This document shows, one piece after another, positions 16,514-60,004 of a stretch of 64,000 nt of DNA. How positions within the stretch are numbered: the first letter of the stretch is position 1; each line of letters begins with the position of its first letter. Under the pieces are notes generated by a model. That model saw only the letters and a program-made list of their open reading frames with translations. It searched no databases and was not told the DNA's origin. The translations under genes were made by a program, and so were the position numbers. Source of the stretch: Promethearchaeota archaeon (GTDB lineage Archaea > Asgardarchaeota > Lokiarchaeia > Sigyniarchaeales > SOKP01); NCBI GenBank assembly GCA_019057865.1, contig JAHLWP010000001.1, forward strand, positions 32,001 through 96,000, given 5' to 3'.

Positions 16514-16617
16514 CGCAGATGGAGGGAATCGAACCCCCGAGCGCTTTCGCGCACCGGCTCTCTATGTCAGCAAAAAAACTCTCGAGGCCGGCGTCTTACC
16601 AGCTAGGCTACATCTGC
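16514..16617 (-). tRNA. tRNA-Ser(CGA) with 21-nt intron at canonical position 37/38 (16560-16580)
   Basis: Acceptor GCAGATG/CATCTGC, anticodon stem CCGGC/GCCGG with loop CT-CGA-G|A, long variable arm, T-loop TTCGATT, discriminator G, no encoded CCA. Confidence 0.93.
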
Positions 16618-45886: not shown

Positions 45887-45955
45887 ATGTGTTAATGGTG
45901 CAACCATTTCTTCAACTGAGTTCTCATTTTTCTAACTCAGAATCATTAGACACAT
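45887..45955 (-). promoter_or_regulatory. SECIS element (eukaryote-like AUGA/GA core) in the 3' UTR of hdrA-vhuD
   Basis: ATGTGT-CTA-ATGA-TT-CTGAGTT-[AGAAAAATGAG]-AACTCAG-TT-GA-AGAA-ATGGT(TGC)ACCAT-TA-ACACAT, starting 8 nt after the vhuD TAG. Confidence 0.85.
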
Positions 45956-54016: not shown

Positions 54017-54310
54017 ATGGTTCAACAAGAGAGTGAACTTCAAAAAGAAAATAAACTTAAAGTAGAAATTTATGTGCCTTTAAATGTATGCGCTTGCCAA
54101 TGGGAAAGATTTATGAATCTCGTTTTTCAGGTAATTACACCTTATAATAAGTATATAACATTCGATACAAAGAATTTAGATTCTGAAGAAGCAAGAAAAT
54201 TGAATTTGCATGGTAATAGTGTAGTTATTGATGGAAATGAAATCGTTACGACATCATTTGCTCTGAAGAAAAAGCTACCAGAAATATTGAAGTCAAAAGG
54301 TTTGATTTAA
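54017..54310 (+). CDS. Small thioredoxin-fold-like protein with CxC
   Basis: KVEIYVP..VCAC...EEARKL.....VVIDG. Confidence 0.6.
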   Translation: MVQQESELQKENKLKVEIYVPLNVCACQWERFMNLVFQVITPYNKYITFDTKNLDSEEARKLNLHGNSVVIDGNEIVTTSFALKKKLPEILKSKGLI

Positions 54311-56288: not shown

Positions 56289-56370
56289 GGAATATATAGG
56301 ACGCAATCCTATTGTCAATCTTTTACTAGTATTTTTTTAAAAGATTTCATTCAATTTTTTTACATATTCC
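56289..56370 (-). promoter_or_regulatory. Second SECIS element
   Basis: GGAATAT...ATGA-AATCTTTTA-[AAAAAATACTAG]-TAAAAGATT-GA-CA-ATAGGAT(TGC)GTCCTAT-ATATTCC; same architecture as 45887-45955. Confidence 0.75.
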
Positions 56371-56845
56371 TTTTTAATTTAAAATAATGGGCAAATATCT
56401 CATTATCTTTCCCATATCTTTTTCGAATGGTTGCTTTAAACCGTCCTATATCCAATCTATTTCTCACTTTTTCTCATCAACATCCCGAATCTGGTTGTAT
56501 ATCGATAATGCTATTTGGATATAGATTAAAATCTATATCTTCTCTTAATGGCATAAAATTCCTTGGGTTTCCCTCTTCATCTGGACCATATGGCATTAAT
56601 CCAATATCATCATAAATTTCATTTTGTTTAGGGTTCCACACGAGTTGCAGATAGTTATGGATATAATCCTTAAATATTGGGAAAATCGAATCTTGGGGGT
56701 GTTCAAAAATATATTTATCAACCATGGCTAAAGCTTGTACAAATGTGGCATTATCATCTACCTCAACAGTAAATTCCTTTCCTTTTGATAATCCCGTTAG
56801 TGGTATACTTATCTTAAACGTAATTTTCTTAATTTTTGTTATCAC
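56360..56845 (-). CDS. MoaD/ubiquitin-like protein, candidate selenoprotein (..PDSGC-U-U-EKVR..; ends at 56477 if UGA is a stop)
   Basis: Beta-grasp-like pattern (KITFKI...EFTVEVDDNATF..AL...L.PNSIIDIQPDSGC). Tandem TGA TGA at 56474-56479; frame open for 37 further codons to TAA at 56360; SECIS immediately downstream. Likely start near GAGGTG at 56845. Confidence 0.6.
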
Positions 56846-56911
56846 CTCTAATTTTATATTAAAATATACAATAAAATAAAGATATAAAAAATTCATGAAT
56901 TAATTCTATTA

Positions 56912-57976
56912 TTATTTGTATTTACTGTTTGTCTCTTGATATCCTTTCCAGAAACCATGTCTACCTAAATATCTCCCTAAATAAACCAAGGATAACATTA
57001 CAGGAATTTCCCAGAATAACCCCATTGTAGTCCCTAAAGCGGCAATCGAACCTACACCATACATCGTTACAGCAACGGCAATCGCAATTTCGAAATGACT
57101 TGAAGACCCTATAAGTACCGTTATAATTGCTTGGCTATATTTCACTTTTAATACTTTAGTAACTATTATATTATACCCCACAACAATTGCAAATCCGACT
57201 AATAGGGGTACCGTAATTAAAAGCAATAAATCGGGGTTATCTATAAGCACTTGACCATTCAAGGAAAATAACACCATTAATGTCATTAATAAGGCAACTA
57301 TGGCTATAGTGGAAACAACCGGTCGGTATTTATTATGGAACCAATCTTCACCTTTGGATTTCACTAACGTTTTTTTACTAATTACGCCAAATAAGAGCGG
57401 AAGTCCGATAAATACTCCTAATGAAATCAATAACATGATTGGATCTAAAGGAATTTTCTTTTCTAAAGTAATATTTGCTATACTTACCAGAAGTGTCATT
57501 ACAGGTATATACAAAATAATTATTGTTATTGTATTTAAGCTGGTTGTAATAACATTTTGTTCTTGGTTTCCTTTTGCTAACCACCCCCATACCAAAACCA
57601 TTGCAGTACAAGGGCTACTACTTAGCAAGATAACTGCAAGTATAAGTTGCTGATTTCCTCCTAAAAATAAAAGTGCCATTCCGAGCCCTACAAATGGCGC
57701 GACAATCCAATTCGAAAAAAGTGTCAGTATGATAGGTTTTGGATTTTTTCCAAGCTTTTTTAACTCTGAGGCTTGAAGATTTAACATTGCCGGATACATC
57801 ATAAGAAATAAACAAACACCAATTGGTATAGAAATTCCGGCAATTTGCCAAGAATCAATTACTTCACTTATGCCTGGGACATACTGAGAGATAAGGATTC
57901 CGATAATAATGCATAACGCTATCCAAACTGGTAGCAATTTATCAAATACTCCAAGTTTTTTTTCTTCGTCACTCAT
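56912..57976 (-). CDS. acr3: Acr3-family arsenite efflux permease
   Basis: MMYP, NW...P, PCTAMV..W and SHFEIAIAVA motifs; about 10 TM segments. Confidence 0.93.
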   Translation of the reverse strand: MSDEEKKLGVFDKLLPVWIALCIIIGILISQYVPGISEVIDSWQIAGISIPIGVCLFLMMYPAMLNLQASELKKLGKNPKPIILTLFSNWIVAPFVGLGMALLFLGGNQQLILAVILLSSSPCTAMVLVWGWLAKGNQEQNVITTSLNTITIIILYIPVMTLLVSIANITLEKKIPLDPIMLLISLGVFIGLPLLFGVISKKTLVKSKGEDWFHNKYRPVVSTIAIVALLMTLMVLFSLNGQVLIDNPDLLLLITVPLLVGFAIVVGYNIIVTKVLKVKYSQAIITVLIGSSSHFEIAIAVAVTMYGVGSIAALGTTMGLFWEIPVMLSLVYLGRYLGRHGFWKGYQETNSKYK

Positions 57977-59166: not shown

Positions 59167-60004
59167 TCATTCAATACAACAGCTTATAACAGATATATCT
59201 CGTTTAAAGGATTGAGCTGTAAGTTTAATCGCTTCTGACAATGTAGGAAAAACATGTATTGTGTTAATAACATCATCAAGTGTCATATGATTTTTAATAA
59301 TCATAACACCTTCATGAATTAGATCAGCCGCATTACGAGATAAAATATGAATACCTAATATTTTTTCAGTTTTCCTATTAATAACAATTTTTAATACTCC
59401 TCTATCATCATTAATGATTTTTGCTTTAGGGACAAAACTAATTGGATAGTATTGCATCTGCAAACAAATCCCTTTTGATTTACTGTAAGTTCAGTTAAAC
59501 CTATACTCCCAACTTGAGGGTCGGTAAAAATCGCGTGGGGAACCACTTTGTAATCCATTCTAATCTTTTCATTTGATAAAGTATTATTTGCAGCAATCAT
59601 ACCTTCTCTAGCAGCAATGGTTTCTAACATTGGTTCGCCTATTACATCCCCAGCAGTCCATATATTATCCATAACATTCATAAATTCGTCGACAATGATT
59701 TCTCCTTTCTTTCCTAAAGTTATTCCAATCCAAGATTTTTAGTATTTGCTCTCCTTCCCGTTGCAATTAAGAGTTGTTCTGCTTTAAAAGATAATTCATT
59801 ATTATTAAAAATTACATTTAATTTTATTTCAGAACCTTCTTTTTCAATTTTATTTATTTTAGCATTGGTGTATATTTCGAACCTCTCATCTTGCAGATAT
59901 TCTTTCAGATAATGAGATATTTCAGGTTCTTCATTTGGTACTATGTTATCTAATATTTCAAAAAGATATACCTTTGTACCAAATCGAGAAAACAATTGAG
60001 TAAA
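59167..60004 (-). pseudogene. merA: 5'-truncated, twice-frameshifted mercuric reductase (MerA)-like gene
   Basis: Three frames join as FTQLFSRFG...ATGRRANT | GITLG..GEIIVDEFM...AGDV...VPHAIFTDPQV | FVPKA...HVFPTLSE...SCCIE (MerA C-terminal Cys pair); frameshifts near 59725 and 59440. Confidence 0.85.

Follow-up and report, generated by a model that had tools for sequence, protein, structure and literature searches.

Downstream of the arsenite efflux gene acr3, in the stretch of 64,000 nucleotides analysed here (the window), lies a small gene that public records annotate as a hypothetical protein of 120-122 aa. The frame up to TGA TGA (56479-56474) reads ...PDSGC, with TGT as the Cys codon (56482-56480, minus strand), and is followed past TGA TGA by 37 sense codons at 56473-56363 of the same strand, EKVRNRLDIGRFKATIRKRYGKDNEIFAHYFKLKRNM, and then by TAA. 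The question that this locus raises is whether the protein ends at Cys or whether both TGAs are decoded as selenocysteine (Sec), and what such a protein would do beside an arsenite pump. A first-pass annotation, made from the letters alone, had proposed a selenoprotein here, and its coordinates and description of the site (PDSGC, TGA TGA, 37 open codons, TAA) proved exact. The features concerned are the following.

56912-57976, minus strand: acr3, arsenite efflux transporter, directly upstream on the same strand (TIGR00832 match)
56360-56845, minus strand: predicted selenoprotein coding sequence, 161 codons including two Sec, GTG start at 56845, TAA stop at 56362-56360
56480-56845, minus strand: predicted beta-grasp core, residues 1-122, ending QPDSGC (AlphaFold model, structural matches)
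56474-56479, minus strand: two in-frame UGA codons, residues 123-124, putative Sec-Sec (TGA TGA conservation)
56363-56473, minus strand: 37-codon C-terminal extension, predicted helical and packed on the core (protein-level conservation, model)

The most plausible start appears to be the GTG at 56845; homologs begin at the equivalent M/V-I-x-K-I-K-K-I-T-F, and the alternative upstream ATG at 56896 adds a 17-aa leader that is not conserved. The acr3 product matched TIGR00832 with 293 bits (cut-off 282.8) over positions 1-326 of 327 and is encoded by a single uninterrupted ORF of 354 aa. Since there is no UGA inside it, acr3 itself needs no SECIS, as the first-pass annotation had pointed out.

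Conservation of the TGA pair and of the frame behind it

Among 5.8 billion proteins searched, 73 were related; they stem almost entirely from Promethearchaeota MAGs or sediment metagenomes, and no Pfam domain was found in any of them. The complete relatives all end in ...D-x-G-C at the annotated stop. Four third-party gene calls, made with a code in which TGA is Trp, run on as GC-WW-EKVKNRLDIGxFK...RKKYGK.NE.FAHYFK; these calls by others yield the same conserved tail and were counted in favour of recoding. From species-representative genomes 61 loci were taken, among which 57 copies of the type present in the window (type 1) were readable. TGA TGA followed the Cys codon in all 57, and the frame then entered a common conserved tail. 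About 70 members including paralogs, from 58 species-level loci, read TGA TGA or TGA GGN TGA TGA at this place and never TAA or TAG. Because 30 of the 43 long ORFs in the window (30% GC) end in TAA, a plain stop would be expected to be TAA often, and the constancy of TGA-TGA argues against an ordinary stop. Moreover, the adjoining Gly and Cys codons show synonymous changes, and TGATGA shows none.

The tail evolves in a way that points to translation. Pairwise mismatch at codon positions 1, 2 and 3 was 0.26, 0.18 and 0.46 in the tail and 0.31, 0.19 and 0.51 in the last 31 codons of the core, a third-position excess that indicates coding-type, core-like evolution. All loci share the tail consensus EKVKNRLDIGxFK..RKKYGK.NE.FAHYF, and the Glu-Lys directly past the predicted Sec-Sec changes only synonymously (GAA/GAG, AAA/AAG), which argues for continuous translation across the UGAs. 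The constant UGAs, never replaced by TAA or TAG after SGC, and an extension kept as protein are what the first-pass annotation had expected of homologs. Three codons past Sec-Sec, the Val codon (56465-56467 in the window) is GTG in 45 of 56 loci, although the genomes are AT-rich, and GTA, GTT, GTC, ATA, ATT or TTT in the remaining eleven; this bias could come from an influence of codon context on Sec decoding or from translation that now and then starts internally. RNAalifold predicted no pairs for a local, SRE-like RNA structure at the UGA codons. In one locus (L023, ~4390) a third in-frame TGA occupies the position of a conserved tail Gly (DIUNFK), which could reflect an error in sequencing or one more Sec.

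Homologs with Cys in place of Sec are the usual hallmark for validating selenoproteins. The first-pass annotation had counted on such homologs, and in this it was not borne out: none had Cys at the Sec positions among the 73 close relatives or the 44 relatives from a profile search (about 120 in total). Translation of the small gene after acr3 very probably continues past both TGAs, and we consider with high confidence that the gene encodes a real Sec-decoded protein.

The 3' element and the selenocysteine machinery

Past the TAA the window carries a hairpin with the parts of a Sec insertion element.

56299-56364, minus strand: Loki-type (eukaryote-like, kink-turn) SECIS in the 3' UTR (covariance model, covariation, descriptor)
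56347-56350, minus strand: AUGA of the SECIS
56338-56346 and 56317-56325, minus strand: the two sides of its upper stem, with the apical loop at 56326-56337
56315-56316, minus strand: GA past the stem
56296-56312, minus strand: auxiliary 3' hairpin AUAGGA-UUGCG-UCCUAU directly past the SECIS (RNAalifold)

The AUGA (56350) begins 9 nt past TAA and is followed by a 9-bp stem and an A-rich loop of 12 nt that ends in AG. A covariance model gave this element 78.4 bits, the window copy having been part of the training set. About 50 loci carry the conserved element, 112-147 nt past the Cys codon. In the upper stem, both partners have changed in 10 of 13 pairs across 50 loci, and the covariation score was reached by none of 500 column shuffles and by no slid register; the stem has nine paired columns, with 95% of cells paired. 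AUGA stands directly 5' of the stem in 49 of the 50 loci (UUGA in L045), and the apical loop is 11 nt long in 46 loci, while four, the one in the window among them, have a loop of 12 nt. Loop columns A31-A33 and G39 are invariant, as is A50 on the 3' side of the stem, which is preceded by G in 43 loci and by A in 7, giving GA or AA.

The lokiSECIS, as published, has AUGA before a 9-bp stem, an 11-nt loop with adenines at its start and an invariant G, usually after A, as its last base, and GA or AA past the stem, and lies near the end of the coding sequence (PMC4989117). The family element shows every lokiSECIS feature given there (PMC4989117). A descriptor built solely from these published features was scanned over both strands of the window, and it returned two sites only, at 45946, directly after vhuD, and at 56350, after the gene studied here, where Markov-random sequence gave 0.03 sites per window. 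The hdrA-vhuD genes of the window are bona fide Sec genes, with in-frame UGAs at the canonical places. Both the descriptor and the covariation bear out the first-pass reading of a hairpin with the architecture of the vhuD SECIS, and the downstream SECIS looked for in homologs is there in about 50 loci, covarying and lokiSECIS-like. Rfam, which is without a Loki-type model, reported no SECIS family in the window at gathering thresholds.

The auxiliary hairpin (AGGA-UUGCN-UCCU) was predicted by RNAalifold on 42 loci with five pairs, of which the outer two covary (AU/UA/GU/GC). The vhuD SECIS is also trailed by a hairpin (45896-45912, minus strand), and both window hairpins have a UUGC-type loop; the accessible text of the lokiSECIS papers does not describe a short hairpin in this position. 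In 15 of 54 loci there is no earlier TAA or TAG and the ORF finally stops at the UGA that lies in frame within the AUGA core of the SECIS (L002:4493-4495, L034, L041 and L053, and also L065 on contig C57 of the window's own genome), so that termination would fall within the kink-turn motif.

Genes for SepSecS (488 bits) and EFSec (245 bits) are present in the genome; each scores above its curated cut-off, and they lie no more than 5 kb apart. Between them lies a match to tRNA-Sec, which stays below threshold (34.6-37.9 bits), and ARAGORN found no tRNA-Sec at the SepSecS locus. Elsewhere in the window, a 104-nt stretch at 16514-16617 (minus strand) gave an Rfam tRNA match of 43.5 bits that ARAGORN did not report, and is probably an intron-containing archaeal tRNA.

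Predicted fold, paralogs and distribution

The read-through product was modelled with AlphaFold2 from an alignment of 47 sequences in which Sec was written as Cys, with a pLDDT of 87.3 and a pTM of 0.85. Residues 1-122 form a beta-grasp in the predicted model, and the tail is modelled as helices 124-128, 133-144 and 152-155, a block with pLDDT 93-95. The best matches of an exhaustive structural comparison were the transcobalamin beta domain, CysO, SAMP1, HVO_2177 and MoaD proteins (Z 5.4-6.8), with VIA Z values for the core of 6.8 for CysO, 6.6 for SAMP1 and 5.4-5.8 for MoaD. Foldseek gave SAMP1 a TM of 0.63 (TMt), and the language-model neighbours of the 122-aa core in the Atlas include ThiS/MoaD clusters. 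These scores, which come from a predicted structure, support a beta-grasp fold and not family membership, homology being unproven at the moderate Z of 5.4-6.8; the ubiquitin-like MoaD/SAMP pattern noticed beforehand is upheld at the level of the fold by the VIA and Foldseek values. Sequence profiles were silent: Pfam had no family for the core at E <= 0.1, PF02597 (ThiS) and ArsD included, and none for the read-through protein at E <= 0.01; NCBIfam had none for the core, and searching PDB sequences with profiles A3 and A5 gave no match. A search for longer fused forms of the family found none, which is weak evidence.

D119, C122, U123, K137, F151, H153 and Y154 are invariant, and U124 is nearly so, with L049 as the exception. 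The tail, which matches the core in conservation and is confidently packed in the model, appears to be an integral part of the globule rather than a disordered segment or a cleavable propeptide. For the same reasons, cleavage in the manner of a ubiquitin precursor, which the first-pass annotation had considered, is unlikely.

The members fall into three types. Type 1 (57 copies) reads ...PD-x-G-C-U-U-EKVKNRL; type 2 (9 copies) reads ...(A/V)-H-A-D-U-U-AD-x-MKERL, in which Asp replaces Cys and a His stands three residues before the first Sec; and type 3 (4 copies) reads ...S-S-A-U-G-U-U, with three Sec. The genome of the window has the type-1 copy described here and, on another contig, a type-2 copy behind a ferredoxin gene and a CxC Trx-fold gene. 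In three loci (L001:4462-5003, L003:4453-4994 and L005:4474-5026) type 1 and type 2 stand in tandem with a single SECIS past the second gene, so that four UGAs in two cistrons appear to be served by one element. The 44 relatives mentioned above came from a profile search of 1.84 billion representatives. More distant relatives (P0097, loci L068-L070) still read PD-x-G-C and then UU, and three distant relatives without Sec read G-C-[IV]-[TS]. Having Ile or Val and Thr or Ser at the UU positions, the latter indicate that a ligand role at these positions is not universal in the superfamily. A distant homolog without Sec (..PDATC-VS-.., L067:1274-2216) lies immediately upstream of a NifU_N scaffold gene, and the superfamily at large may have a part in handling Fe-S or sulfur.

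When 301 genomes of the phylum were surveyed in six frames, the gene was located in 67, all full-length matches containing two or three in-frame TGA. Within the GTDB family to which the window belongs, 59 of 68 surveyed genomes have the gene, and so do 4 of 7, 1 of 1 and 1 of 1 genomes of sister families of the order and class; in the approximately 220 other genomes surveyed it was essentially not found. The family is restricted to Lokiarchaeia.

Genomic context, candidate function and alternatives

The gene belongs to a conserved operon with the layout arsR / acr3 - methyltransferase+CdhD+Trx fusion - 4Fe-4S ferredoxin - CxC Trx-fold - selenoprotein - LMW-PTP ArsC - YdjM. Of the 58 loci, 31 have Acr3 within about 4 kb, 17 have ArsR, 23 a 4Fe-4S ferredoxin whose tail is rich in Cys, 28 a membrane protein like YdjM and 12 an LMW-PTP ArsC; five loci (L016, L037, L040, L044 and L045) are without any ars neighbour. 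The most constant neighbour is a protein of about 95 aa with C-x-C-x-W, present in 42 of the 58 loci, mostly immediately upstream and on the same strand. The motif is invariant in this family, which has no Pfam match and is represented in the window at 54017-54310 (plus strand), and some of its proteins have an N-terminal extension with vicinal Cys pairs. The CxC protein was modelled with a thioredoxin fold, its CxC lying at the N-terminal end of helix 1, and a fold search with it returned generic thioredoxins, with no ArsD among the best 50 matches. The same domain recurs as the Trx-like domain of a 552-aa fusion that many loci have between acr3 and the ferredoxin gene, in which it is joined to a SAM methyltransferase and a CdhD-like segment; we read this fusion as ArsM-like. 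In a closed genome, the gene of a distant family member comes right after one for a CDF cation-efflux protein. Acr3 and CDF are unrelated efflux pumps, and the association of the family with both suggests that a substrate is handed on.

We propose, with a probability of about 0.7, that the gene represents an uncatalogued Lokiarchaeial family of genuine Cys-Sec-Sec selenoproteins whose site binds and relays As(III) or a related metalloid. According to this proposal, the ribosome would decode both adjacent UGAs as Sec, guided by the Loki-type SECIS in the 3' UTR past the true TAA. The product, of about 161 residues, would have a beta-grasp domain whose last strand ends in Asp-x-Gly-Cys, then Sec-Sec, and then a conserved tail, helical and some 35 residues long, which folds back on the domain. 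The Cys-Sec-Sec triad would supply three soft chalcogen ligands (Sec-x-Sec-Sec or His/Asp-Sec-Sec in the paralogs), capture As(III) or a related soft metalloid and hand it on to Acr3 and/or to the ArsM-like methyltransferase of the operon, with the CxC thioredoxin-fold protein and the ferredoxin as possible partners in exchange or reduction. A ligand site is favoured by the variation of the third ligand (Cys, Sec, His/Asp) beside a constant Sec-Sec, a pattern typical of a metal site, and the conserved ars-operon context strengthens the chelation or reduction of As(III) or Hg(II) that the first-pass annotation had suggested. A role of some kind in the handling of arsenic or soft metals seems likely from this context, and ligand binding with hand-off as the specific chemistry is put forward more tentatively.

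In the main alternative, the Cys-Sec-Sec protein is real but its site would be a redox centre, a selenol shuttle. A Cys-Sec selenenylsulfide or a Sec-Sec diselenide, turned over with the ferredoxin and the CxC thioredoxin-fold protein as partners, would reduce arsenate, alongside ArsC or in its place, or would feed the disulfide cascade of the ArsM-like enzyme. Thioredoxin reductase has a similar string in its redox tail, Gly-Cys-Sec-Gly, and the constant neighbours are an invariant C-x-C Trx-fold protein and a 4Fe-4S ferredoxin, which together with ArsC fit redox chemistry as well as binding; the presence of LMW-PTP ArsC in only 12 of 58 loci also leaves room for another reductase. However, the replacement of Cys by Asp, with a His, in type 2 and the U-G-U-U of type 3 make the third ligand variable and the site more metal-like, and the association with Acr3 and CDF pumps suggests hand-off, so that we regard a redox centre as rather unlikely. 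A carrier of the ubiquitin-like type in selenium or sulfur trafficking, bearing a perselenide or persulfide on its C-U-U tail and linked to ars genes only secondarily, would agree with the closest folds being the sulfur carriers CysO, SAMP1 and MoaD and with the NifU_N gene beside a distant homolog that lacks Sec. This role is improbable, as the protein has no free Gly-Gly C-terminus, no E1-like gene is found among the recurrent neighbours, and arsenic resistance is the dominant, conserved context.

The interpretation that dispenses with Sec altogether takes the TGAs as tandem ordinary stops, the 122-aa protein as complete, the downstream frame as a micro-ORF that starts at GTG by termination-reinitiation, and the hairpin as a terminator or other 3' element. 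The public annotation of a 120-122-aa protein agrees with it, and the GTG three codons past the UGAs in 45 of 56 loci could hint at re-initiation; yet eleven loci have other codons there, and the Glu-Lys ahead of the GTG is conserved as amino acids through synonymous changes. In addition, the frame is identical in all loci and TAA or TAG never occurs, the hairpin shows all lokiSECIS features and is of the type common to vhuD, the tail is confidently packed against the core in the AlphaFold model, and the tandem paralogs use one SECIS in the way of hdrA-vhuD. We rejected tandem stops with a micro-ORF on codon variation, frame, SECIS and packed tail, and consider them highly improbable.

The proposed Cys-Sec-Sec metalloid-binding protein resembles several known systems in part. 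The recoding is the same as in the lokiSECIS genes HdrA-VhuD, VhuU and PrxL, which combine in-frame UGA with a 3'-UTR element (PMC4989117, PMC11227280), and in hdrA-vhuD one SECIS likewise serves several UGAs in two cistrons, as in the tandem loci; the new family differs in being another protein, with directly adjacent Sec and no Cys counterpart. With MoaD, ThiS, CysO, SAMP and Urm1 it shares the beta-grasp and reactive residues on a tail past the last strand, but it has neither a Pfam ThiS match nor an E1-like neighbour. In MoaD, ThiS and SAMP carriers a free C-terminal Gly-Gly serves adenylation and thiocarboxylation; the family has instead Gly-Cys-Sec-Sec and 37 residues predicted to fold back. 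ArsD, of thioredoxin fold, binds As(III) through three ligands, Cys12-Cys13 and Cys18, and hands it over to the pump, with ArsA as partner. As a small ars-operon protein with vicinal chalcogen residues it offers a working analogy, whereas the present family is a beta-grasp protein with Sec beside Acr3, has no Pfam ArsD match and is not homologous to it. Thioredoxin reductase has Gly-Cys-Sec on a flexible segment, where adjacent chalcogens can form a ring; in the family the motif is internal, followed by a second Sec and part of a non-flavoprotein of 161 residues. A precedent for Sec as metal ligand is found in bacterial proteins of arsenic and mercury resistance loci, namely the 'CU' double selenoprotein MbdU, SaoB/SaoC and UXX-star, for which Sec has been proposed to bind soft metals or metalloids (PMC13188914); these are bacterial, carry the SECIS within the ORF and belong to unrelated folds and families.

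The Asgard selenoproteins named in published surveys are SelD, FrhA/VhuU, HdrA, FrhD/VhuD, and Prx-like, AhpF-N-like and DsbA-like proteins (PMC4989117, PMC9723677, PMC11227280, PMC13188914), seven families that were all reached through homology to known selenoproteins or their Cys forms. The present family does not appear in the lists of Mariotti 2016, Sun 2021, Huang 2024 and a 2026 review, and a full-text literature search for a selenoprotein with Acr3 or a beta-grasp returned nothing relevant. Given this absence and its annotation as hypothetical, we rate it as a new selenoprotein family with unusual features that uses a known recoding system. Without a Cys counterpart it is invisible to homology-based selenoproteome surveys, and this, together with its annotation as a truncated hypothetical protein, explains why it was missed. 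If confirmed, it would be the first lineage-specific archaeal selenoprotein family, would link selenium use to arsenic detoxification in anoxic sediments and would represent a new use of the ubiquitin-like fold, with Cys-Sec-Sec in place of Gly-Gly on the reactive tail. A single eukaryote-like 3'-UTR SECIS would then drive processive decoding of directly adjacent UGAs, as many as three in one gene and four in a pair of cistrons, which would make the family useful for the study of Sec-insertion processivity.

Gene callers systematically truncate the genes of this family. Another irregular reading frame in the window lies at 59167-59681 (minus strand), where ORFs in different frames overlap (59167-59463 and 59391-59681); the first of them ends in ...SVISCCIE and looks like the frameshifted C-terminus of a MerA-like pyridine-nucleotide disulfide oxidoreductase.
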